Program-made: the position numbers and the translations under genes | Assembly (NCBI GenBank): GCA_041483135.1 | Contig: JBGPFE010000003.1 | Coordinates: forward strand, 6,035-70,034 | Origin: Gammaproteobacteria bacterium | Lineage (GTDB): Bacteria > Pseudomonadota > Gammaproteobacteria > Burkholderiales > SG8-41 | DNA length: 64,000 nt | Direction of reading: 5' to 3' | The notes under the pieces: model-generated | The model's database searches: none | Seen by the model: the letters and a program-made list of their open reading frames with translations, nothing else | What the model was told of the DNA's origin: nothing | In this document: positions 52,309-64,000 of the stretch, in pieces | How positions within the stretch are numbered: position 1 is the stretch's first letter | Layout: the number at the start of each line of letters is the position of its first letter

Positions 52309-54090
52309 CTAGAAGAGCAGATAAGAGAGAGCGAAGTGTATCCCCGAGTCCTGCAGGTCATACGAATTCTGCAGGAAATGGCGGGTGGCCCTGGCCACGT
52401 AGAGCTGGGACTGGAACTGGCGGCCGTAGTCCCAAAGAAACCCCAGACCATAGCCCGCGATCGAATGCGGGGACGCCGGCGTCGCGTCCGAATTCCACGA
52501 GTTGCCGTAGTCGATGAAGGGCGCCAGCTGGAAGCGGCCTTTTCCCGGCTCGCCATCCGTGATCGGAATGCGGTACTCGACCGAAGCGATCACGCCGTTG
52601 TCGCGCAGCAACTGGTTCTCGCGGTAACCGCGCACGGTATTCATGCCGCCGAGGGCAATCTGCTCCAGCGACATGAGCGAATTCGGGGTGTACTGGACAT
52701 CGGTGCGGACGACGAGCTGATTGTTCTTGTACAGGCGTTTTGCCCACTGCACCTGGCCCAGCCAGGAAAAAAAATGCCGGCTCGGCCCGATGCTCGCCAT
52801 CTGCGGACCGGCGTTGGTCCAGCCGTTTGAGAACGTGGAGCGCAGCGCGAGCGCGTCCTCGGGACTGCGCCGCACCCAGTCCTGCGAAAAACGGATGACG
52901 TTGACTTGGCTGTGCCCGTCCGGCACGCCCGGCGTGAACGAGAAGGGTATGCCGAGCAACGAGGTCTGGTTCTCCCGGTACTCGTAGCGCAGCCCCAGCG
53001 AAATGGACTGGTTGATGGTGCGCCAGACCGGTTGCGTGAGTCCGGCCTGGTAGGTCCGCGCCCGGCTCTGGATATTGATTTGATCGAACGGCGTCTCCAG
53101 CACCTGCGAGTCCGTCTCGGTGACGCGCAGCGACAACGTGGTGTCGCGGGCGTTCAGCGGCAGCGCGTAGCCGATCTGATAATCGTCAACGCCATGGGTC
53201 AGGCCGTAACGGATGTCGAACGTATCGCCGCGGCCGGTCAGGTTGCGATTGCTGGCGAAAATCTCTCCGAGATAGGGACCGACGCTCGGCGGCCGCCGGT
53301 TGCTGAACGCCAATCCCACCTGGTAAGGCAGGGCTTCCTCGACGTTCGCTTTCAGCACGGCCTCCCCCGGGCGCGTACCCGGGGACAGTTCGGCATTGAT
53401 GCGCTCGATCAGCCCATCCTGCTGAAGAATCTGCAGGCGCTCCTGCAATTTGTTCCCATTCAATGGCGGGCCGGCGCCGAGCAGGATGCGGTCGATGATG
53501 TATCCGGATTTGAGCTGCTGGTTGCCGGTGATCTCGATTTGGCTGAGCTTGCCTTCGATGATTTCAAAGCGCACGACACCATCCTTGACCTGCTGGTCGG
53601 GAAGCAGTGCGCCGGAATTCAGGTAGCCTTTTTTGATGTAGGCGAGGGTGAGCTTGTTCCTGAGTTCCTGCAGGTCCTCGGAAGTGACGATGCGGTTTTC
53701 ATATTCCTTCGTGATGCCCGCCAGCTCCGCAGCCGGAATGACTTTGTTGCCGGTAATCACGACGCGCTTTACGAAAACACGCAGCCCGGGAACCAGCCTG
53801 CCCGGCTCAACCGGCGGGATAGGCGCGGGCGGCAGCGCGAAGGGGCTGGGTTGCGGCTCGCGAAACGGCGGCAGCAGCGGCCGGGTGTCGCTGGGCCGCT
53901 GCTCGAATGGCGCGGGCGCCGGCGGCACCTGCGCCAGGGCGGCCGCGGCGCAGCACAGCATCAGCGCGTACGCGCAAGCCCGCTGCACCGCCAAGTTACG
54001 CAAACGCCGCCGCTGACTGCAAAACTGCGCGTCGAGCCTGGCGCCGCTGTCACTCCCTGACACGTTTTTTTTCTGTTGTATGGTTGTCAA
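52309..54090 (-). CDS. ShlB/FhaC/HecB-family two-partner secretion transporter (TpsB)
   Basis: Signal region, Pro-rich linker, and POTRA region (VVITGNKVIPAAELAGITKEYENRIVTSEDLQELRNKLTLAYIKKGYLNS). Omp85-type barrel ending in ...HFALSYLLF. The TTG start at 54090 is uncertain. Confidence 0.9.
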   Translation of the reverse strand: MTTIQQKKNVSGSDSGARLDAQFCSQRRRLRNLAVQRACAYALMLCCAAAALAQVPPAPAPFEQRPSDTRPLLPPFREPQPSPFALPPAPIPPVEPGRLVPGLRVFVKRVVITGNKVIPAAELAGITKEYENRIVTSEDLQELRNKLTLAYIKKGYLNSGALLPDQQVKDGVVRFEIIEGKLSQIEITGNQQLKSGYIIDRILLGAGPPLNGNKLQERLQILQQDGLIERINAELSPGTRPGEAVLKANVEEALPYQVGLAFSNRRPPSVGPYLGEIFASNRNLTGRGDTFDIRYGLTHGVDDYQIGYALPLNARDTTLSLRVTETDSQVLETPFDQINIQSRARTYQAGLTQPVWRTINQSISLGLRYEYRENQTSLLGIPFSFTPGVPDGHSQVNVIRFSQDWVRRSPEDALALRSTFSNGWTNAGPQMASIGPSRHFFSWLGQVQWAKRLYKNNQLVVRTDVQYTPNSLMSLEQIALGGMNTVRGYRENQLLRDNGVIASVEYRIPITDGEPGKGRFQLAPFIDYGNSWNSDATPASPHSIAGYGLGFLWDYGRQFQSQLYVARATRHFLQNSYDLQDSGIHFALSYLLF

Positions 54091-54109: not shown

Positions 54110-57100
54110 TTATTTCGAACAGCCGAAATCGTTCTGCGCCAGCAGAAGAGACTGATTGCCGCTGCCGTTGGTTATGTCCGCTGCTGCAACCGCGGGCGAA
54201 TTCATCGAAGCGGAACTCGGCAGCAAGCCGGCCGGCTCCACCGGCATGCCGCCGCGACCCGCCAGCACGAAGCTGCTCGCCTTGCCGGCGAGGCGCGCGG
54301 CGCAGCGCTCCGCGAGCAAATTACTCACATCCAGATAGGCCGTGGGAAGAGTGACGAGATTGCTGGTCAGGTCGACAATCGGCGAGCTGATCGAAACCGT
54401 CCCGCTGACGCCAAGCTGCGAGGACGCCGAGATCACGCTGCCGGGCGATTCGAAGATGTTGCCAGCGGTGATGTTGATGTTGCCGCCGTTGCCGCCGAAG
54501 GCGTTGGCGATGATCTGGCTGCTTTGCAGCACCACGAAGGTGGGGTCGATGGTGATGTTGCCGCCGTTGCCGAGGCCGGCCCCCACCGTGGTGGTGATTT
54601 TGCTGTCCTGCAGGGAGACCAGCACCCCCGCATGAATGTCGATGTTGCCGCCGTCGGCGCGGATCGACTCGGTCGTGATCGCGCTGCCGCCCGTGAGCTG
54701 CAGCGAATTGCCCGCGTTCAGCACGATGTGCCCGGCGAGGCCGCTGCTGGTGGATTTGGCGCTGATGCTCGAGCCGCCATCGAGCAGGATATCGCCGGCG
54801 TTCACCGTGATCGTGCCGCCGCGCCCGCTCCAGTTGGTGCTGGTGTCGATGCGGCCGCCGGCGCTCAGCGCGAGCCGCCCGGCGTTGAGCGTGACGTCGC
54901 CGGCGTTGCCGGTGCCGTTGGTGTTCGACGCGATGCTGCGCCCGGCGACCGCGAGCACCGGGGCGGTGATCGTGATGCTGCCGCCGTCGCCCTGCGTGTT
55001 GATCAGGGTCGAGGTGTCGATCGCGGGCAGGAAGTGGTTCGTCGTGGGCATGATGGAAACCGATCCGCTCGCCGCGATATTGATGCTGCCGCCGCGGCTG
55101 GAGCCGAACAGCACGCTCGCGCCGATATTGGAATCGCCCTGCATCAGCAGGCTGCCCACGCTGAGCGAAATCACGCCGGCGTCGGCGCCGAAATTGGTGT
55201 TTGACTGGATCGAGCCGCCGTTCATCGTCAGCAGCGGCGTGGTGACCGTGATCGCGCCGCCGCGTCCGCCGAAATAAGTCGACGCATCGAGTCCGCCGAG
55301 TTGCGTCGGGCCCGCGGTGATCTCGATGCGGTCGCTGGCGTTGACGTTGAGATTGCCGCCGTCGCCGTTGCCGAGGTAGCTCGAGACCGAGAGCTGGCCG
55401 TCGCCCAGCAGCCGCAGCGTGCCGGTCGTCACGTTGATATTGCCCGCGCGCCCCTGGTCGTGGGTGATGGCGAGGATGGCCGCGCCGTCGACCACCAGCA
55501 ACGGCGTCGCGATCGTGATCGAGCCGCCGTTGCCAATGCTGTCGGCCTCGCTGCTGATTCCGGTCAATGCCGCGCCAAAAACCTGCAGCGACGAACTGGC
55601 GCGCAGGTCGATATCGGCGCCGGCGCCCGCGCCCCAGGTGGTGCTCCGTATCGGGCCTGCGACCGTGACATCGGCGCCCTGGATCAGGATGCCGCCGGTG
55701 GTGCCGCTGCTGTAATTGGTGGAATCCACGATGCCGTCCGTGATGCCGATCTGCGGCGCCGTGAGGGTGATGGCGCCGGCGCCGCCGGTGGTGGTCGCCA
55801 CCGAACTCACCGTGCCGCCGTTCGACAGATTCAAACTTTGCGCGGCCGTCAGCACGAGGTCGCCGCTGCGGCCGGCCGCATAGCTCGCAGAGGCCACCGC
55901 GGCGCCGTCGGCGATGCTGATGCTATTCGCCTGCACGCTGATGTTGCCCGAGTTTCCGGGGCCGAAGGTGGCGGTGGACAGGCCGCTCAACACGCTCGCG
56001 CTTTCGTTGCCAGCGATCGCCACGCTCCCCGTCGCGGTCAGCATGATGTCGCCGCCGCGTCCGCTGCCGTACGTTTCGGTGAGCACGCGGCCGCCGCTGT
56101 CGAACTGCGCCGAGCCGACGTTCAGGTTGATGCCGGCGCCATTGCCGCCGGCGGTGGCGAACGAGTAGATATTGCCGCCGGTGTCGATTGTCAATTGCGG
56201 CGCGGTCACCGCAATCGTGCCGGCGGACCCGGCGCCGTTGCTGCCGGCGTACAGCCCGCTGCGGTTGCCGGAGATGTCGGTGCCGGAGATCACCACCGGC
56301 GCGCTGCTCGTGATCGTTTGGTTGCCGCCCGCTCCGGTTCCGCTCACGGAGGTATCGAGAAACGAACCGCCGGTCAGCGCGACGCCGGCGGCCGTGAGCA
56401 GCAGATTGCCGCCGCTGCCCGCGCCGAGATTGCGCGCGGTGATGGCGCTGCCCGCGAGCGACGCCATTCCGCTCAGCGCCAGTTCGACGTTGCCGCCGGC
56501 GCCCGGTTGGTCGTGATCGGAAGTGAGCGCCGAGTTCGTCATGGTCAGCGTGCCGCCGCGGATGAAAATATTTCCCGCCGTGAGACCGGGCACGCTGTCG
56601 GTCTGCAGCAGCGATCCGCTGAAGGTCAGCAGCGAAGAGTTGGCGGCGACCGCCGCGCCGATGCCCGGCGCGGCGGGCAGCACTTCGCCGGGCGCGCTCA
56701 CGCCCGCGATGTCGATCTGCCCGCCGGCCGCGCGCAGCAGCGCGTTCGTCAGCGTGACGCCGCCGCCGAAGAGCGACAGCGTCTGGCCGTCGGGCATCTG
56801 CAGCGTCGACCCCGACACCGTCACTGGTGCCGGATTCGCGTTCAGGAACCCGAACGCCGAAGGCGGTGCGGAGGTCAATACGCTGTTGGCGGGCGTGGTG
56901 GCGTCAAAGCGCCCGTTGCTGCCGAGCTTCACGTAATCGGCGGTGCTCGCGTGAAACGAGCCGCTGATGTTGAGGCTCGCGTTGGGGCCGAAGGAAATCC
57001 CGAGCGGATCGATCAGGAAGAAGTTCGCGCCGCCTATCGTCGAAGCGATCTGGCCGTCGATGCTCGAGGCGCTGCCGGTGACGCGGGTGATGACGTTGGC

Positions 57101-57352
57101 AACCGGGGTGGTCGAGGAGAAGGTCGCGGTTTCGCTGGTGCCGATATTGAAGGTGCCGAAGCTGAAGAAGAGGTTGCCGCCGGCGCCGCCGACGATCTGG
57201 CCGTAGGTCTGGGTGATGGGGTAGTTGGGGCCGTTGATGGTGCGCACGGCGCCCAAGGTGTTGTCGGTGACCACGCTGCCGGCGGCGAACGCCGGAACTG
57301 CCTGCACCGCGAACAGCGCAAGCGCAAAGCGATACACTGCGGCTTCTCTCAC
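54110..57352 (-). CDS. TpsA-like filamentous-haemagglutinin N-terminal (TPS) domain protein, paralog 1
   Basis: Short signal peptide, then the TPS domain. Key blocks are VVTDNTLGAV, NLFFSFGTFNIG, VITRVTGSASSIDGQI and ANFFLIDPLGISFGPNA. A Gly/Ser/Thr/Asn-rich beta-helix-type repeat region follows. The conserved C-terminal module is ERCAARLAGKASSFVLAGRGGMPVEP...NDFGCSK. The GTG start at 57352 was chosen by alignment with paralog 2. The track ORF starts at TTG 57370. Confidence 0.85.
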   Translation of the reverse strand: MREAAVYRFALALFAVQAVPAFAAGSVVTDNTLGAVRTINGPNYPITQTYGQIVGGAGGNLFFSFGTFNIGTSETATFSSTTPVANVITRVTGSASSIDGQIASTIGGANFFLIDPLGISFGPNASLNISGSFHASTADYVKLGSNGRFDATTPANSVLTSAPPSAFGFLNANPAPVTVSGSTLQMPDGQTLSLFGGGVTLTNALLRAAGGQIDIAGVSAPGEVLPAAPGIGAAVAANSSLLTFSGSLLQTDSVPGLTAGNIFIRGGTLTMTNSALTSDHDQPGAGGNVELALSGMASLAGSAITARNLGAGSGGNLLLTAAGVALTGGSFLDTSVSGTGAGGNQTITSSAPVVISGTDISGNRSGLYAGSNGAGSAGTIAVTAPQLTIDTGGNIYSFATAGGNGAGINLNVGSAQFDSGGRVLTETYGSGRGGDIMLTATGSVAIAGNESASVLSGLSTATFGPGNSGNISVQANSISIADGAAVASASYAAGRSGDLVLTAAQSLNLSNGGTVSSVATTTGGAGAITLTAPQIGITDGIVDSTNYSSGTTGGILIQGADVTVAGPIRSTTWGAGAGADIDLRASSSLQVFGAALTGISSEADSIGNGGSITIATPLLVVDGAAILAITHDQGRAGNINVTTGTLRLLGDGQLSVSSYLGNGDGGNLNVNASDRIEITAGPTQLGGLDASTYFGGRGGAITVTTPLLTMNGGSIQSNTNFGADAGVISLSVGSLLMQGDSNIGASVLFGSSRGGSINIAASGSVSIMPTTNHFLPAIDTSTLINTQGDGGSITITAPVLAVAGRSIASNTNGTGNAGDVTLNAGRLALSAGGRIDTSTNWSGRGGTITVNAGDILLDGGSSISAKSTSSGLAGHIVLNAGNSLQLTGGSAITTESIRADGGNIDIHAGVLVSLQDSKITTTVGAGLGNGGNITIDPTFVVLQSSQIIANAFGGNGGNINITAGNIFESPGSVISASSQLGVSGTVSISSPIVDLTSNLVTLPTAYLDVSNLLAERCAARLAGKASSFVLAGRGGMPVEPAGLLPSSASMNSPAVAAADITNGSGNQSLLLAQNDFGCSK

Positions 57353-57498
57353 CCCAGCCTGCCTTTGCAACCGCGTGCCAACTTCACAGCCTGCGATGCC
57401 GAGGGCATCCGCATGCTGGTGGAATTGAACCGAGCATCCATCATATCGCCCCGTTCCCGCCCATGGAAATGTTCGCCGTCACACCGGCGAGGTCGTTT

Positions 57499-60400
57499 TT
57501 ATTTCGTGCAGCCGAAATCGTTCTGCGCCAGCAGAAGAGACTGATTGCCGCTGCCGCCGCCCACGCGCGCTGCAACCGCGGGCGGATGCAGCGCGGCGGA
57601 ACTGGGCAGCAAGCCGGCCGGCTCCACCGGCATGCCGCCGCGGCCCGCCATCACGAAACTGCTCGCTTTGCCGGCCAGGCGCGCGGCGCAGCGTTCCGCC
57701 AGCAGGGCGCTCACGTCAAGATAAGAGGTCGGCAGCGTCACGAGGCTGCTCGTGAGATCGACGATGGGCGAGGTGATGGTGACCGTGCCGCTGATGCCGA
57801 GCTGCGAGGATGCCGAGATCACGCTGTCAGGCGATTGGAAGATGTTGCCGGCGATGATATCGATATTGCCGCCGTTGCCAGCGACGGCGTTGGCGATGAT
57901 GCTGCTTCCGTTTAGAACCACGAAGGTGGGGTCGATTAAAATGTTGCCGCCGTTCCCCGCCCCGCCGCCGACGCTCGTCGTAATGCGGCTGCCATTGAGA
58001 GAGACCAGGTCGCTGGCAAAGATCTTGATATTGCCGCCGTCGGCGCTATCCGCTGCAGCCGTAATGGCGCTGTTATCCATGCGCAGGCTCGCGCCGGCAT
58101 TAATGATGATGTCTCCCGCATTACCTGATCCCGTACTCTTAGAGGTGATTTGAGCGCCGCTGTCAAGAGTTACTGATTGGCCGGCAGTAATGGAAATTTG
58201 CCCGCCGAGTCCCGAGCTTTCAGCAATTGCAGAAATTCCGCTGCTGTTTCCGGAGATGGAGATGTTGTTGGCTTTGACCGATATAAATCCGGCATTGCCT
58301 GAATCGGATGTGCTCGCCGATATTTGTCCGCCGCCCGTTAGAGTCAGGCCCTGCGTGGTAATCAGAACATCGCCGCCGTCGCCATTCGCGTAGACGTCAG
58401 AAGATATCCCGGTGAAGTTTGCGCTGGCAGACCCGTCGATGGCGATGTTGTTGGCGTCGACCGATATCAGCCCGCCTTTTCCCGAACCGGAGGTGTCTGC
58501 AATGATGAATCCGCCAGCGGCCACGCTCAGACTTTGGGTGGTGATCAGAATACCGCCGCCGTTGCCTGTGCTCCCTGTCTCAGCCGTTGCGAACAATCCG
58601 CTGCTGTTTCCGGAGATAGCGATGTTGTTGGCTTTGACCGATATTATTCCGGCATTCCCTGCATCAAACGTGCTCGCCGAAATTTGTCCGCCGCCGGTCA
58701 GGGCCAGGCTCTGCGTGGTTATCAGAATGCCGCCGCCGTCGCCATTCGCGTTGACGTCAGAAGATATCCCGGTGAAGTTTGCGCTGGCAGACCCGTCGAT
58801 GGTGATGTTGTCGGCGGTGACCGATATCACTCCCCCTTTTCCCGGGCCGGAGGTGTCTGCGGTGATCACCCCGGTATTTGTCAGGGTCAGACCCTGGGTG
58901 GTAATAAAAATACCGCCGCCATTGCCTGTGCTCCCCGTCTCAGCCGTTGCGAAAATTCCGCTGTTGCCCCCGCTGTTACTTCCCGAGATAGCGATGTTGT
59001 TGGCGGTGATCGATAAGAATCCAGCATTCCCTGCATTGTTCGTGCTCGCCGAAATTTGCCCGCCGCCGGTCAGGGCCAGGCCCTGCGTGGCAATTAGAAC
59101 ATCGCCGCCATTGCCATTCGCGAAGACATCGGAGGAAATCCCGGTAAAGAAACCCCCGCTGCCAGTCCCGTCAATGGTGATGTTGTTGGCGGTGACCGAT
59201 ATCAACCCGCCTTTTCCCGGGCCGTGGGTGTCCACTGTGATCTGCCCGGTATTTGTCAGGGTCAGGCCCTGGGTGGAAATAAAAATATCGCCGCCATTGC
59301 CATTCGCGAAGACATCGGAGGAAATCCCGGTAAAGAAACCCCCGCTGCCAGTCCCGTCGATGGTGATGTTGTCGGCGGTGACCGATATCACCCCGCCTTT
59401 TCCCGAACCGGAGGTGTCTGCATCGATCAATCCACCGGCGGCCACGGTCAGGCTCTGGGTGGAGATCAGAATATCGCCGCCATTGCCTGTGCTCCCCGAA
59501 TTAGCCGTTGCGAAAATTCCGCTGTTTTTTCCGGATATGGCGATGTTGCTGGCGTTTACAAGTGTCGTTCCTCCATTCCCGGCACCGCGGGTGGAGACTA
59601 TGAGCTCTCCACCACCCATCAAGTTTAGATTTTGCGTGGTAATTTGAATATCGCCGGCATTGCCTGTACTTCCTGCCCCAGCACTAGCAAAAATCGCGCT
59701 GGAAAATCCCCCGCCTGTGCCGGAGATGGTGATGTCGTTGGAGTTGACGGATACCGACCCTGCATTCCCTGAACCGTTGGTGAGGGCCTGGATCTGCGCG
59801 CCATTCAGCAGGTTTACTGTCTGGGCCTGAATATCAATGCCTTGGCCGTTCCCGGATTTGGTATCTGCATATAAAAAAGACTGGTCAAGAGTCAATTGAC
59901 CGCCGCGGATAAAAATCGAACCGCCGCCAGTTACTGAGCCGACTGGTTCGCTCGCATTGACGTAACTATTTCCGGCCAGCGAAATGGCGCCCAAGGCGGC
60001 GAAGGAACTTACGTCCACTCCCCCGGTGGTCAGTCCCGCTTCGCCGCCCGAGGCCACGCTCGCAAGATTGACGACGCCGGAGAGCGCTTGCAGGTGGGCG
60101 CCGTTGGTCAGGCTGATGTCGCCCGCGACTACGGACAGCGTCTGCCCCGCGGGGACCGACAGCTGGCTGCCGTTGAAACTGATGGACGCAGGCGTGGGCC
60201 CCAGGAACCCGAACGCCGAGGGCGCTGCGGAGGTCAATACGCTGTTGGCGGGCGTGGTGGCGTCAAAGCGCCCGTTGCTGCCGAGCTTCACGTAATCGGC
60301 GGTGGTCGCGTGAAACGAGCCGCTGATGTTGAGGCTCGCGTTGGGGCCGAAGGAAATCCCGAGCGGATCGATCAGAAAGAAGTTCGCGCCGCCTATCGTC

Positions 60401-60720
60401 GAAGCGATCTGGCCGTCGATGCTCGACGCGCTGCCGGTGACGCGGGTGATGACGTTAGAAACCGAGGTGGTCGAGGAGAAGGTCGCGGTCTCGCTGGTGC
60501 CGATATTGAAGGTGCCGAAGCTGAAGAAGAGATTGCCGCCGGCGCCGCCGACGATCTGGCCGTAAGTCTGGGTGATGGGGTAGTTGGGGCCGTTGATGGT
60601 GCGCACGGCGCCCAGGGTATTGTCGGTCACCACGCTGCCGGCGGCGAACGCCGAAACTACCTGCACCGCGAACAGGAGGAGTGCGAAGCGATACGTCACC
60701 GCTAGCAACGGATTTCTCAT
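57499..60720 (-). CDS. TpsA-like filamentous-haemagglutinin N-terminal (TPS) domain protein, paralog 2
   Basis: The TPS domain is nearly identical to paralog 1, the core consists of 58-63-aa tandem repeats, and the C-terminal module is the same (...GRGGMPVEP...NDFGCTK). The ATG at 60720 is preceded by AGGGG. The track ORF starts at 60765. Confidence 0.85.
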   Translation of the reverse strand: MRNPLLAVTYRFALLLFAVQVVSAFAAGSVVTDNTLGAVRTINGPNYPITQTYGQIVGGAGGNLFFSFGTFNIGTSETATFSSTTSVSNVITRVTGSASSIDGQIASTIGGANFFLIDPLGISFGPNASLNISGSFHATTADYVKLGSNGRFDATTPANSVLTSAAPSAFGFLGPTPASISFNGSQLSVPAGQTLSVVAGDISLTNGAHLQALSGVVNLASVASGGEAGLTTGGVDVSSFAALGAISLAGNSYVNASEPVGSVTGGGSIFIRGGQLTLDQSFLYADTKSGNGQGIDIQAQTVNLLNGAQIQALTNGSGNAGSVSVNSNDITISGTGGGFSSAIFASAGAGSTGNAGDIQITTQNLNLMGGGELIVSTRGAGNGGTTLVNASNIAISGKNSGIFATANSGSTGNGGDILISTQSLTVAAGGLIDADTSGSGKGGVISVTADNITIDGTGSGGFFTGISSDVFANGNGGDIFISTQGLTLTNTGQITVDTHGPGKGGLISVTANNITIDGTGSGGFFTGISSDVFANGNGGDVLIATQGLALTGGGQISASTNNAGNAGFLSITANNIAISGSNSGGNSGIFATAETGSTGNGGGIFITTQGLTLTNTGVITADTSGPGKGGVISVTADNITIDGSASANFTGISSDVNANGDGGGILITTQSLALTGGGQISASTFDAGNAGIISVKANNIAISGNSSGLFATAETGSTGNGGGILITTQSLSVAAGGFIIADTSGSGKGGLISVDANNIAIDGSASANFTGISSDVYANGDGGDVLITTQGLTLTGGGQISASTSDSGNAGFISVKANNISISGNSSGISAIAESSGLGGQISITAGQSVTLDSGAQITSKSTGSGNAGDIIINAGASLRMDNSAITAAADSADGGNIKIFASDLVSLNGSRITTSVGGGAGNGGNILIDPTFVVLNGSSIIANAVAGNGGNIDIIAGNIFQSPDSVISASSQLGISGTVTITSPIVDLTSSLVTLPTSYLDVSALLAERCAARLAGKASSFVMAGRGGMPVEPAGLLPSSAALHPPAVAARVGGGSGNQSLLLAQNDFGCTK
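58111..59769. repeat. in-frame tandem coding repeats (about 58-63 codons each, two alternating subtypes) inside tpsA2
   Basis: Residues about 333-885 of the 1088-aa ORF. Units start GKGG(V/L)ISV.. or GNAG(F/I).S... Adjacent units at 59101 and 59287 (offset 186 nt) share about 119 nt with 3 mismatches. Confidence 0.8.
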
Positions 60721-61120
60721 CTTTGGCCCCTGTGGTGGCGCCCCGAGCGCAGTCTGGTATGACAATTGCGTAGAAACATCACAACATACCTCTCCATGCC
60801 TGTCAATTTAGGTTGTGACTGCTCGATGCGCTGATGTAGTATCGGGCGCGTATCCTTCGATTCCAGCGGTAATACGTGCTTCGGCGATAGCTGCAGCGCA
60901 ATATGCCGGCAATGCCTTGAACATGGCAAGGCGAATCGTTCACGTATATGCCGTGAATATTTACGGGCCGAAGTTCGCCGGTTTTATTTACCATCCAGGG
61001 CATGGATCCAGTTGCGCCACGCGCTGGCTATGTAACTGCAATCCGCACGATCGCTGGTTTGAACGTGCGGGATTTTGCGGCCGCGAGATTTTCCCATCGA
61101 CCGTTTGAGGGGGGGCTGTA

Positions 61121-63436
61121 GTGGACTCCAAGCGTAGAGCAAATAGACTCCCGGTCATTTTCGCTGGTCTGGCCGCGGCAGTGTTGTTGCTTGCCTTGGG
61201 GATTGGCAACGCGGCTGAACCTTTGTCCGGTGCCGCATTGCGGGAACGCGTCGCGGCTGGCGACCGGCTTTTCCAGGCCGGGGATTTTGAACGCGCCCTG
61301 AACGAATGGGATCAGGCCTTGAAATCCTACAATCCCGACACGCAGCGCATGGAGCGGTCTGACGTATTATCGAAGATAGCCGACGCTTTCAGGGCGCTCG
61401 GTTATACCGAGCGCGCCGCCGTGACTCTGCAGCAGGCTGCCCAGTTATCAGCATCGGATGACGTTCGCACGGCCAGCATACTTTCGAACCTCGGCAGCGC
61501 CCTGCAGGCAGCGGGGCTGCTGAAGGAAGCGCGGCAGCAAATCGACACCAGCATCGTGCTTGCACAAAAAACCGGTCGCAGGGATATCGAGGCCGCGGCG
61601 CAGAACAATCGGGGCAATCTGCTCGCGGCTGCCAATGAAAACGATGCGGCAATCAGTGCCTATCAGCGCAGCATCGATCTCGCGGCCCAATCGGGCAACT
61701 CGCTGCTTCGAAGCCAGGCTCTCGTTAATGCGGCGCGCACGGCGGAGCGCACCGGCAAGCCTGACCAAGCTGTTGCGCTCGCGCAGGCGGCCGGCGAAGC
61801 CGCGACGGGGCTGCCGCCAAGTCATGACTCCGCCTATGCGTTGATCGCGGGGGGGCAGCTATACCTGCGACTGCAGAAGGCCACGCCGAGCCAGTCCTTG
61901 CTGGATGCCGCAGTCAGGGCGCTCAACGGGGCTCTGAAAATGGCGCGGGAAATCGGCGACCGCCGGGCCGAGTCGTATGCACTCGGCTACCTCGGTGAAC
62001 TCTACGAAAACGAAGGCCGTGTGGCCGACGCTCTTGATCTCACGCGGCGCGCCACGTTCGACGCGCAGCAGCTCAACGCGCCGGAGCTGCTCTACCGATG
62101 GAATTGGCAGACGGGCCGGCTGTTGAGGGCGCAAAACGATCCTGACGGCGCTATCGCGGCGTACCGGCAGGCGGTGGGCCAATTGCAATCGATCCGCAAT
62201 GATGTTCTGGTCAATTACACTTCGGGCCGGTCTTCATTTCGGGAGGTGTTCGCGCCGCTTTATTTTGAGCTCGCGGATTTGTTGTTACAGCAAGGGGCGA
62301 ATACCAAGGACCCTTCCCGCGTGCAACAGGCGCTGGTCGAAGCACGCGATACGATCGAGCGGTCCAAGTCGGCTGAGTTGCAGGACTACTTCCAGGATAA
62401 TTGCGTCACCGCGCTGCAGTCAAAGATTACGCAGGTCGAGAAGGTGGGGGCCAGGACCGCGGTTATCTATCCGATCCTGTTGCGCGACCGGCTCGAGTTG
62501 CTGGTCACTTTTTCCGACAGCATGCGGCAGTACAGGGTCGCCGTCGATGGGGCGTCTCTCGTCGAAGCAGTGAGAAATTTCCGCCTGCGGCTGGAGCGCC
62601 GCACCTCGCGCGAGTATCTGCCGCTGGCCCAGCAGCTCTACGGTTGGCTGGTGAAACCGTTTGAACCTGAACTCGTGTCCCGAAAAATCGATACTCTCGT
62701 GTTCGTGCCGGATGGCGCGCTGCGCACCATCCCGATTTCGGCGCTGCATGATGGCAAGCAGTATCTGATCAGCCGTTTTGCCGTCGCCACGACACCCGGC
62801 CTGACTCTGGTCGATCCCAGACCGCTTGAGGCTCACGCGAGCCAGGTGCTGCTCAGCGGCCTCACCGAACCCGTGCAGGGTTTTTCGGGCCTGCCCAACG
62901 TTGCGGCCGAACTGCAGGCGGTGCAGGAAATTGAAGGAGGAACACTTCTGAAGGACAAGGATTACGTCCTGCGCAACGTCGAGCAGGAATTTTCGCAAAA
63001 ATCATTTACCCTAGTTCATATTGCTTCGCATGGACATTTCAGCAGCGACCCGAAGCAGACTTTTCTGCTCACTTACGATGGCAAGCTGACGATGGATGGG
63101 CTCGAGAAGCTCATCGCTCCCAGCCGTTACCGTGATCAGCCGCTCGAGCTGCTGACGCTGAGCGCCTGCCAGACGGCCGCGGGCGACGACCGCGCGGCGC
63201 TTGGACTCGCCGGCGTGGCGGTAAAGGCGGGCGCGCGCAGCGCGCTGGCGTCCCTGTGGTTTATCAACGACCAGTCTTCCACTCTGCTCATTTCGGATTT
63301 CTATCGCTACCTCAAGCAGCCCGGCATGTCGAAAGCAAAAGCTCTGCAGCAAGCCCAGGTCAAAATGATCGGCGATAATCGTTTCGGTCATCCGGGCTAT
63401 TGGTCGCCGTTCCTTCTCATAGGGAATTGGCTTTAG
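61121..63436 (+). CDS. secreted TPR-repeat / CHAT-domain (caspase-like) protein
   Basis: GTG start after GAGGGGGGG, and signal-like LPVIFAGLAAAVLLLALGIGNAAEP. TPR-like repeats span residues about 40-400. The C-terminal CHAT domain has LVHIASHGHF (His637, 63029-63031) and LTLSACQTA (Cys683, 63167-63169). Confidence 0.88.
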   Translation: MDSKRRANRLPVIFAGLAAAVLLLALGIGNAAEPLSGAALRERVAAGDRLFQAGDFERALNEWDQALKSYNPDTQRMERSDVLSKIADAFRALGYTERAAVTLQQAAQLSASDDVRTASILSNLGSALQAAGLLKEARQQIDTSIVLAQKTGRRDIEAAAQNNRGNLLAAANENDAAISAYQRSIDLAAQSGNSLLRSQALVNAARTAERTGKPDQAVALAQAAGEAATGLPPSHDSAYALIAGGQLYLRLQKATPSQSLLDAAVRALNGALKMAREIGDRRAESYALGYLGELYENEGRVADALDLTRRATFDAQQLNAPELLYRWNWQTGRLLRAQNDPDGAIAAYRQAVGQLQSIRNDVLVNYTSGRSSFREVFAPLYFELADLLLQQGANTKDPSRVQQALVEARDTIERSKSAELQDYFQDNCVTALQSKITQVEKVGARTAVIYPILLRDRLELLVTFSDSMRQYRVAVDGASLVEAVRNFRLRLERRTSREYLPLAQQLYGWLVKPFEPELVSRKIDTLVFVPDGALRTIPISALHDGKQYLISRFAVATTPGLTLVDPRPLEAHASQVLLSGLTEPVQGFSGLPNVAAELQAVQEIEGGTLLKDKDYVLRNVEQEFSQKSFTLVHIASHGHFSSDPKQTFLLTYDGKLTMDGLEKLIAPSRYRDQPLELLTLSACQTAAGDDRAALGLAGVAVKAGARSALASLWFINDQSSTLLISDFYRYLKQPGMSKAKALQQAQVKMIGDNRFGHPGYWSPFLLIGNWL

Positions 63437-63444
63437 GACCGTTG

Positions 63445-64000
63445 GTGGAAAGGCTCCGCGAAGCGCTGCAGCAGCCAGCCGTGATCTGTTTCATCCTGGC
63501 GAACGTCGTCTTCCTGCTGCTGCTTGCCGCTCGTCACGGTGGCGCACTCGTGCCGCTCGAGCTGATTTCCTACGATCAGATGCTGCGGTCGCGGCCCGAC
63601 GCTGCCGCTGATTCCCGTATCGTGCTCATCGAAGAGACCGAAGAGGACATCCATCGCTACGGATACCCGCTATCCGATGAAAAACTGGCCGCCGCGCTCG
63701 AGCGACTGACCGCATACCACGCGCGCGCGATTGGCGTTGACATCTATCGCGACATACCGGTGGCGCCGGGTGAAGCCCGCCTCGCATCCATACTGAAGCG
63801 AAACCCGAACATCATATGGGTAAGCAAGTTCAGCGGCGACCAGCGCGCCGTGGCGCCACCCAGGGTTCTCGTCGGCACCGAGCAAGTCGGCTTTAATGAC
63901 CTGATCGACGATCCGGGTGGAATCGTCCGCAGAGGGATGTTGTTCCTCGATGACGGCAAAACCACGGCTTACTCACTGCCGCTGCGCCTGGCGTTGCATT
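63445..64000 (+). CDS. CHASE2 sensor domain protein (N-terminal part, continues beyond window)
   Basis: This frame is open with no stop from 63442 to 64000 and is absent from the ORF track. A TTG at 63442 or GTG at 63445 starts it, followed by the TM helix PAVICFILANVVFLLLLAA. The sequence then reads IVLIEETEEDIHRYGYPLSDEKLAAALERLTAYHARAIGVDIYRD...VGFNDLIDDPGGIVRRG, which is typical of a CHASE2 N-terminus. Confidence 0.8.
   Translation, partial: MERLREALQQPAVICFILANVVFLLLLAARHGGALVPLELISYDQMLRSRPDAAADSRIVLIEETEEDIHRYGYPLSDEKLAAALERLTAYHARAIGVDIYRDIPVAPGEARLASILKRNPNIIWVSKFSGDQRAVAPPRVLVGTEQVGFNDLIDDPGGIVRRGMLFLDDGKTTAYSLPLRLALH

Follow-up and report, generated by a model that had tools for sequence, protein, structure and literature searches.

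The window analysed here, a stretch of 64,000 nucleotides (nt) from contig JBGPFE010000003.1 (positions 6,035 to 70,034, forward strand) of a Gammaproteobacteria bacterium (assembly GCA_041483135.1), carries towards its end a two-partner secretion (TPS) locus with two adjacent tpsA genes, whose products share a conserved C-terminal element, hereafter the handle. Judged from its sequence, the handle marks a very large TpsA subfamily that spans phyla, and its gene is linked to, and in some bacteria fused with, that of an exported TPR-CHAT protease. The genes of the locus, with positions counted from the first letter of the window, are the following.

54110..57370, minus strand: TpsA paralog 1 (TpsA1), longest open reading frame (ORF) 1086 amino acids (aa), PF05860 TPS domain (E 5.6e-30)
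57499..60765, minus strand: TpsA paralog 2 (TpsA2), 1088 aa, PF05860 (E 9.6e-31)
52309..54090, minus strand: TpsB transporter, 593 aa, with ShlB, POTRA_2 and Omp85 domains and no Cys after its signal peptide, directly downstream of TpsA1
61121..63436, plus strand: exported TPR-CHAT protease, 771 aa, divergently transcribed, with CHAT (E 5.8e-57) and TPR
63400..64000, plus strand: start of the gene for a CHASE2 adenylate/guanylate cyclase of 656 aa, which runs past the window end

The window thus holds the attributes of a type Vb TpsA: a TPS domain, an adjacent TpsB with POTRA and an Omp85/ShlB barrel, and a beta-helical body. Between the stop codon of TpsA1 (54110-54112) and the TpsB start (54090) there are 19 nt, and 128 nt separate TpsA2 from TpsA1. 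TpsA1 matches P0003, the database version that begins 11 codons later, at 100%. The N-terminal TPS domain, which was also matched by TIGR01901, is the sole Pfam domain of both TpsA proteins. Over their whole length the paralogs share 48% identity; their ends are near-identical, and the repeat body has diverged. The full cyclase, seen in locus L002, consists of CHASE2 and Guanylate_cyc, and the next gene codes for an exported DUF928 protein (L002:2434-3144, plus strand, just past the window end).

Anatomy of the C-terminal handle

The original prediction had described, at 54110-54424 and 57499-57810, a C-terminal module of about 104 aa common to both TpsA proteins. Its coordinates and quoted sequence are correct, the two ORFs ending exactly there, with the proviso that the coding strand is the minus strand; the plus-strand translations of both intervals were meaningless. 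The shared end was also confirmed: the terminal pieces of 104 and 103 aa are identical at 87 of 104 positions, with one gap of a single residue. They contain GRGGMP and, as had been noted, exactly two Cys, which are the only two of each whole protein (Cys1023 and Cys1084 in TpsA1, Cys1026 and Cys1086 in TpsA2). The 104 aa do not form a single folded module, and their boundary is arbitrary. Conservation between the paralogs spans ~185 aa, and that across the family ~155 aa, the last ~34 being excluded. The handle is better divided into three parts, namely the last beta-helix rung(s), a conserved linear motif and a variable tail:

54374..54673, minus strand: TpsA1 residues 900-999, last beta-helix rungs including SSQLGxSGTV; beta strands in the AlphaFold2 model at a per-residue confidence (pLDDT) of ~80-95; conserved GGNI and ASSxLG columns
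54215..54373, minus strand: TpsA1 residues 1000-1052, linear motif DLTS..LP..YLD...LL...CAAR...SSFV.AGRGG.P..P.G.LPS., supported by column counts, pLDDT and the nonsynonymous (dN) against the synonymous (dS) divergence
54302..54304, minus strand: Cys1023 of TpsA1, the motif cysteine (C1), present in 30/30 sequences of alignment A1
54113..54214, minus strand: TpsA1 residues 1053-1086, variable 34-aa tail ending Cys1084-Ser-Lys (Cys codon 54119-54121)
57601..57759, minus strand: TpsA2 residues 1003-1055, equivalent linear motif (Cys1026 at 57688-57690)
57502..57600, minus strand: TpsA2 residues 1056-1088, tail ending Cys1086-Thr-Lys (Cys codon 57508-57510)

The 104-aa piece opens with the last rung, SSQLGxSGTVxIxSP. 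AlphaFold2 was run on alignment A1, which contains 30 C-termini, for a 187-aa piece of the protein. Residues 1-100 of this piece were modelled as a confident beta-helix, and the remainder had a pLDDT of ~47-54. The model suggests that the motif is a linear segment of low predicted order and that the handle is not one folded domain. A prediction of the complex of TpsB (residues 54-593) with the handle scored 0.02, which speaks neither for nor against binding.

The divergence between the paralogs is unevenly distributed along the genes. In the motif (residues 1000-1052), amino acid identity is 92.5%, with a dN of 0.044 against a dS of 0.87; hence the motif is under purifying selection and does not owe its likeness to recent gene conversion. 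In the 33-codon tail dN equals dS (0.195). The TPS-domain regions (56800-57300 and 60200-60700, minus strand) are 93% identical with a dS of only 0.15. When set against the motif dS, this suggests a recent gene conversion that was confined to the 5′ ends of the tpsA genes.

Searches of the last 160 aa against Pfam and NCBIfam gave only one chance-level Pfam row (PF17477 with the TpsA2 piece, E 0.084, 12.7 bits against a cut-off of 25). A Foldseek search of the 187-aa model against the PDB gave nothing at E≤1e-3; the best E was 0.11, and the rows were weak and of a generic solenoid type. Matches to the handle in the protein Atlas were unnamed clusters only, commonest in Cyanobacteriota. By eye, no C-terminal sorting signal (an outer-membrane beta-signal, or a signal with a transmembrane helix) was seen, since the tail ends in GCSK and has no hydrophobic stretch. 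The view that the paralogs end in a conserved functional handle, and not in a toxin or adhesin tip, is therefore upheld by the lack of a matching Pfam, NCBIfam, PDB or Foldseek family. A CdiA-type polymorphic toxin C-terminus was rejected: the VENN motif is absent from both TpsA proteins, as already noted for VENN and pre-toxin motifs in the original prediction, no Pfam domain follows the TPS domain, and the C-terminus is conserved instead of polymorphic. Likewise, no immunity-like ORF follows either gene, because gaps of just 19 nt and 128 nt leave no room for one. An FhaB-like large prodomain was discarded because only ~85 residues follow the beta-helix.

Family spread and linkage to the TPR-CHAT protease

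A word-indexed search with TpsA1 residues 900-1086, in which 8000 candidates were scored, returned at least 3513 matches at E≤1e-3, and PF05860 was present in 112 of the 120 matches listed. HMMER with the A1 profile found 15114 representatives at E≤1e-3, of which 6477 reached E≤1e-30. Both figures are too high, since positions 1-100 of the profile cover beta-helix rungs and match several times per protein; in the window proteins P0003 and P0004 the profile matches 6 and 8 repeated stretches, respectively. A scan of one genome per species revealed 288 relatives, from which 78 loci with seven phylum-level labels were kept. The labels name alpha-, beta- and gammaproteobacteria, Magnetococcales, Nitrospirota, Geobacter/Desulfobacula-type bacteria, Acidobacteriota, Gemmatimonadales, Verrucomicrobia and Muiribacteriota.

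A motif family profile of 58 positions (53 residues in TpsA1) was run over 245 stored homologs longer than 250 aa, a set that is module-rich by construction because it was taken from the top matches of the family searches. The motif was found in 240 of them. Among 241 aligned motif stretches the motif Cys was kept in 239, and the other strong columns were G42 (211), R43 (189, plus 13 His and 9 Lys), P47 (206) and P50 (224). What follows the motif differs from protein to protein. A tail of 11-200 aa is present in 180/240 homologs, and 153 of these have a Cys within the last 6 residues; in 94 of the 153, exactly 2 residues come after this terminal Cys. Its median spacing from the motif Cys is 68 residues. 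The variable tail is typically ~30-60 residues long and ends in Cys-x-x. Another 55 homologs stop at most 10 residues beyond the motif, without a terminal Cys, and 5 extend more than 200 residues past it. The motif Cys was retained in every class: 152/153 proteins with a terminal-Cys tail, 55/55 tail-less proteins, 27/27 with a tail but no Cys in the last six residues, and 5/5 fusions. The two-Cys feature is therefore correct for the window proteins and fails family-wide, the second Cys being missing in 55/240 homologs, and a simple two-Cys lock is not the whole story because the first Cys is invariant in tail-less and fused proteins. In some homologs (P0249, P0128 and P0192) the tail is longer and of another type, with an IVEAQGW-type motif in common ahead of the last Cys, and these tails may form a second tail family.

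The neighbours of the 78 loci were collected by searching six-frame ORFs with the window proteins and one profile iteration. Many loci are cut by contig ends, and the 32 that extend for 8 kb or more to either side were treated as fully flanked; CHAT was counted within 10 kb. Over all 78 loci, CHAT was found in 53, TpsB in 65, DUF928 in 41 and CHASE2 in 36. The corresponding numbers for the 32 fully flanked loci were 27, 28, 22 and 18. In the window's genome the module is confined to the two window genes, and none of its three CHAT genes shares a contig with any of the three remaining TPS genes. As a control, 61 genomes were sampled evenly from the same class (module threshold E≤1e-10). CHAT was present in 3/3 genomes with the module versus 4/58 without it (G037 is one of the four), and it was near none of 36 TPS-domain matches that lacked the module (15 genomes). 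Outside the window's own genome, CHAT occurred in a single genome with a non-module TPS match, at a distance of more than 0.9 Mb. In a genome that has both (G012), module and CHAT are 3.3 kb apart on one contig. The co-occurrence of the module with CHAT and CHASE2 genes, which the original prediction had raised as a question, is thus found at 27 and 18 of the 32 flanked loci, against 0/36 with CHAT for TPS matches without the module.

The window TPR-CHAT protein begins with a Sec-type signal peptide (~residues 1-32), and a signal-peptide-like N-terminus was present in 36/40 homologs. It is predicted to be active and exported. Three of its residues were invariant in 40/40 homologs:

63029-63031, plus strand: catalytic His637
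63167-63169, plus strand: catalytic Cys683
62402-62404, plus strand: non-catalytic Cys428, in the motif ELxDYFQDxC

Cys428 and Cys683 are the only two Cys of the window protein.

Natural fusions bring handle and protease into one polypeptide. The order TPS, beta-helix, motif, TPR and CHAT was found in P0068 (1803 aa, an 11-member cluster), P0129 (2658 aa), P0130 (2732 aa) and P0138 (1864 aa), and P0132 has the same order and is cut off within the TPR part. P0068 is the same protein as the ORF of locus L008, from a metagenome-assembled genome labelled Methyloversatilis. In the fusions the TPR-CHAT part starts 15-20 residues past the LPSP-like end of the motif. It aligns from ~residue 44 of the window CHAT protein (~87 in P0068, and later in the more divergent P0138), i.e., behind the signal peptide. 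The tail and the tail Cys are gone, and the motif and its Cys are retained. After its signal peptide P0068 has exactly three Cys, namely the motif Cys, the equivalent of Cys428 and the catalytic Cys. The CHAT parts of P0068, the P0129/P0130 pair and P0138 share 28-39% mutual identity; in an unfinished quick tree of these parts the fusions fell in three places, and the supported branches were compatible with a single origin. An AlphaFold2 model of the L008 fusion (875 aa, alignment A3) gave a pLDDT above 90 for TPR-CHAT and of 32-56 for the motif. The modelled TPR-CHAT fold matched Csx29 (8eey_B, E 2e-16), DdvA (8rw5, E 1.8e-13) and separase.

Proposed role of the handle and competing explanations

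Some TpsA proteins are known to be held at, or trimmed from, their C-termini. In the parts of PMC13405001, PMC4694147 and PMC5422565 that deal with CdrA, a cysteine hook retains this TpsA filament in the TpsB pore, and the periplasmic LapG cleaves it. For HMW1 and HxuA, passages of PMC5422565 describe how a disulfide anchor keeps the C-terminus locked in the pore of TpsB, and the last 66 HxuA residues were missing from the electron density map. The same paper relates that the FhaB prodomain (Bordetella), the C-terminal part of this TpsA, stays in the cell envelope and is removed by proteolysis as the protein matures, with the proteases encoded elsewhere; the abstract of PMC4542190 gives ~370 kDa for the FhaB precursor and 250 kDa for the mature protein.

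By the tests made, the handle is not of the CdrA/LapG, CdiA-toxin or FhaB-prodomain type and is probably not of the HMW1/HxuA type; it resembles CdrA/LapG and HMW1/HxuA in its proposed function. The parallel with CdrA/CdrB/LapG/LapD of Pseudomonas aeruginosa, as far as the cited sections describe that system, would consist of a C-terminal Cys-containing periplasmic element, a dedicated periplasmic cysteine protease and a cyclic-nucleotide signalling protein. A C-terminal Cys pair as in CdrA is present in both window proteins (1023/1084 and 1026/1086) and may form a disulfide; the likeness to CdrA is one of proposed function. Several differences stand beside it. The protease is a clan-CD TPR-CHAT protein and not a LapG-type peptidase, and its gene adjoins or is fused to tpsA. 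In the window's genome, which is 98.5% complete, PF06035 (the LapG family, Peptidase_C93) was not found. The cleavage consensus of LapG is (T/A/P)AA(G/V), and the site in CdrA is TAAG. The motif here reads CAAR instead, with R after AA in 174/241 stretches and G in 10/241. The signalling partner would be a CHASE2 cyclase with a periplasmic sensor (outside-in), as opposed to the cyclic di-GMP receptor LapD (inside-out).

The HMW1/HxuA anchor of Haemophilus influenzae is likewise a short C-terminal region with two Cys and is, like the handle, expected in the periplasm. In the handle the loop follows a ~55-residue motif conserved across phyla, the median spacing of the two Cys is 68 residues, and a protease gene is linked. 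Apart from one chance match, no PDB chain matched the A1 profile, a comparison in which the deposited HxuA chains may not include the C-terminal 66 residues. Unlike in FhaB, the part that would be retained is ~85 residues long and the protease gene is adjacent. The protease itself has the TPR-CHAT fold of Csx29 (type III-E Craspase), the DdvA anti-sigma factor and separase, with the catalytic His and Cys conserved; unlike these relatives it carries a signal peptide and is encoded beside a secretion pair, and no CRISPR or sigma-factor context was found in the window.

We give about even chances to the handle being a periplasmic retention and processing element of TpsA filaments that are encoded together with an exported TPR-CHAT protease. 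The interpretation in the original prediction is supported in part; the three roles it had offered, a periplasmic retention or plug element, a disulfide-locked domain and a recognition or cleavage site for CHAT, all stay putative. Periplasmic retention, the disulfide, CHAT cleavage and signalling are what we infer from the architecture described above; all parts of the system would face the periplasm or the cell surface. In this scheme, the beta-helix would be threaded out of the cell by TpsB, and the motif and tail would be kept in the TpsB pore and the periplasm. The loop closed by Cys1023 and Cys1084 would serve as a stopper, in the manner of the CdrA cysteine hook or the HMW1/HxuA disulfide anchor, and in the fused forms TPR-CHAT itself would take its place. 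The motif would be a pore-spanning segment addressed by the protease. It would also mark the boundary between the secreted helix and the periplasmic remainder, because a folded TPR-CHAT domain fused behind it is unlikely to cross the TpsB pore. Periplasmic TPR-CHAT would then act on the handle, most likely by cutting inside the motif. The cut would free the filament, and the fragment left in the periplasm could be sensed by the CHASE2 cyclase and DUF928.

Only a few TpsA proteins (CdrA, HMW1 and HxuA) are known to have a C-terminal retention element. The handle defines a far larger, phylum-spanning subfamily that lies outside every Pfam and NCBIfam model and is tied to an exported caspase-like protease up to the point of gene fusion. 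If the proposed role is true, periplasmic CHAT proteases would gain a defined substrate and a system in which to test them, environmental surface filaments would have a general mechanism of release, and CHASE2 receptors a concrete candidate input. The 58-position motif profile would let annotators split the subfamily from toxin-tipped and adhesin TpsA proteins. A literature search, with subscription journals outside its coverage, found no paper on a TpsA-CHAT linkage or on the handle motif, and for DUF928 (PF06051) it gave only one paper, on an unrelated subject. Caspase-CHASE2 fusions are mentioned in PMC8195603, whose text does not contain hemagglutinin, FhaB, two-partner or POTRA, and PMC2853523 lists only a metacaspase-CHASE2 fusion.

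A number of results weigh against retention and processing as proposed. The second Cys is missing, with the motif Cys kept, in the 55/240 tail-less homologs and in the fusions, so that an intramolecular hook cannot apply throughout the family; 16 of the 55 tail-less homologs have no Cys after residue 40 other than the motif Cys. The basic residue of GRGG is only 88% conserved, and the P0068 fusion has a His there. The AlphaFold2 model of the L008 fusion did not predict that the motif docks stably on TPR-CHAT. When the A1 profile was compared with all PDB chain sequences, a single chance match was obtained (a solute-binding protein, E 0.23), i.e., no sequence similarity to a PDB entry. Five of the 32 flanked loci (L017, L018, L041, L073 and L080) have no CHAT within 10 kb. 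Finally, none of nine module contigs of one genome, G020 (eight of them with a TPS-domain match), carries any of its seven CHAT matches, although adjacency cannot be judged there because the assembly consists of 360 contigs.

The first alternative, which we regard as unlikely, is that the handle is an anchor and nothing else: the motif and the Cys loop would lock the filament in the TpsB pore, and CHAT would instead act on another product of the cluster, such as DUF928 or the CHASE2 receptor. The disulfide anchor of HMW1 and HxuA, as presented in the passages of PMC5422565 cited above, is a precedent, and the failure of the fusion model to dock the motif on TPR-CHAT agrees with it. DUF928, which is exported and has a conserved Gly/Arg/Pro-rich N-terminal motif, could be the substrate. 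However, such an anchor does not account for fusions in which the mature TPR-CHAT part follows the motif directly and replaces the tail, nor for CHAT tracking the module (27/32 loci) and not TPS genes without it (0/36), and the second Cys of the stopper is missing in 55/240 homologs.

Retention and processing could also be extended to a proteolytic relay, which seems to us quite unlikely. A surface event would lead CHAT to cut the motif, and the C-terminal fragment released into the periplasm, by its disulfide loop or its new chain end, would act as ligand of the CHASE2 cyclase, with DUF928 as co-receptor, giving a cyclic-nucleotide signal. In a variant of this relay, Cys428 of the protease might attach it to the motif Cys beforehand.

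Such a tether would be an explanation in its own right, albeit an improbable one. The motif Cys is invariant without the second Cys, which a simple hook leaves unexplained, and this makes room for a mixed disulfide with Cys428 of CHAT: the protease would be the stopper, in trans where the two proteins are separate and in cis in the fusions, and the tail Cys a removable internal partner. The motif Cys is kept in all tail-less (55/55) and fused (5/5) forms, the window CHAT protein has only its catalytic Cys and Cys428, the latter being present in 40/40 homologs, and P0068 has exactly three Cys after its signal peptide. This is an argument from Cys counting, against which Cys428 may be buried or serve catalysis, and 30/40 CHAT homologs have additional Cys.

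We hold it to be just as improbable that the whole C-terminus is secreted as a disulfide-stabilised distal tip or self-association element, the linkage with CHAT being regulatory only. Some TpsA proteins are fully released, according to the part of PMC5422565 devoted to them, and the tail-less variants have no obvious stopper. On the other hand, the motif is predicted to be unstructured and is not a folded tip, an adhesin or toxin domain was not detected, and the ~700-aa folded TPR-CHAT part behind the motif in the fusions would be unlikely to pass the TpsB pore. Lastly, that the handle has no special function and owes its similarity to recent duplication or gene conversion of adjacent paralogs only, as the homogenised TPS regions (93% identity, dS 0.15) might suggest, is hardly credible, a paralog-only similarity being refuted by the motif divergence (dS 0.87, dN 0.044) and by its recurrence in thousands of proteins with seven phylum-level labels.

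Other features of the locus and of related genomes

In 33 aligned homologs, the DUF928 protein has a conserved YKPPxRGAPxxRVGGGTRG directly after its signal peptide. This Arg/Gly/Pro-rich motif loosely resembles the GRGGxPxxP part of the TpsA handle, and the same protease or TPR domain might recognise it as a further address. In G020, which has at least nine module-bearing tpsA genes and seven CHAT matches, the system is strongly expanded locally. The window's genome (G000) encodes two more large CHAT proteins (open frames of 1038 and 1092 aa), on contigs C19 and C62, which have no TPS-domain match. By-eye inspection of the divergent promoter region (60766-61120) revealed no convincing CRP-like site. 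Long open frames of up to 747 aa, among them that at 55301-57544 on the plus strand, run antisense to the tpsA genes; with their Arg/Ala/Gly-rich translations they look like by-products of GC-rich repeats and not like genes.

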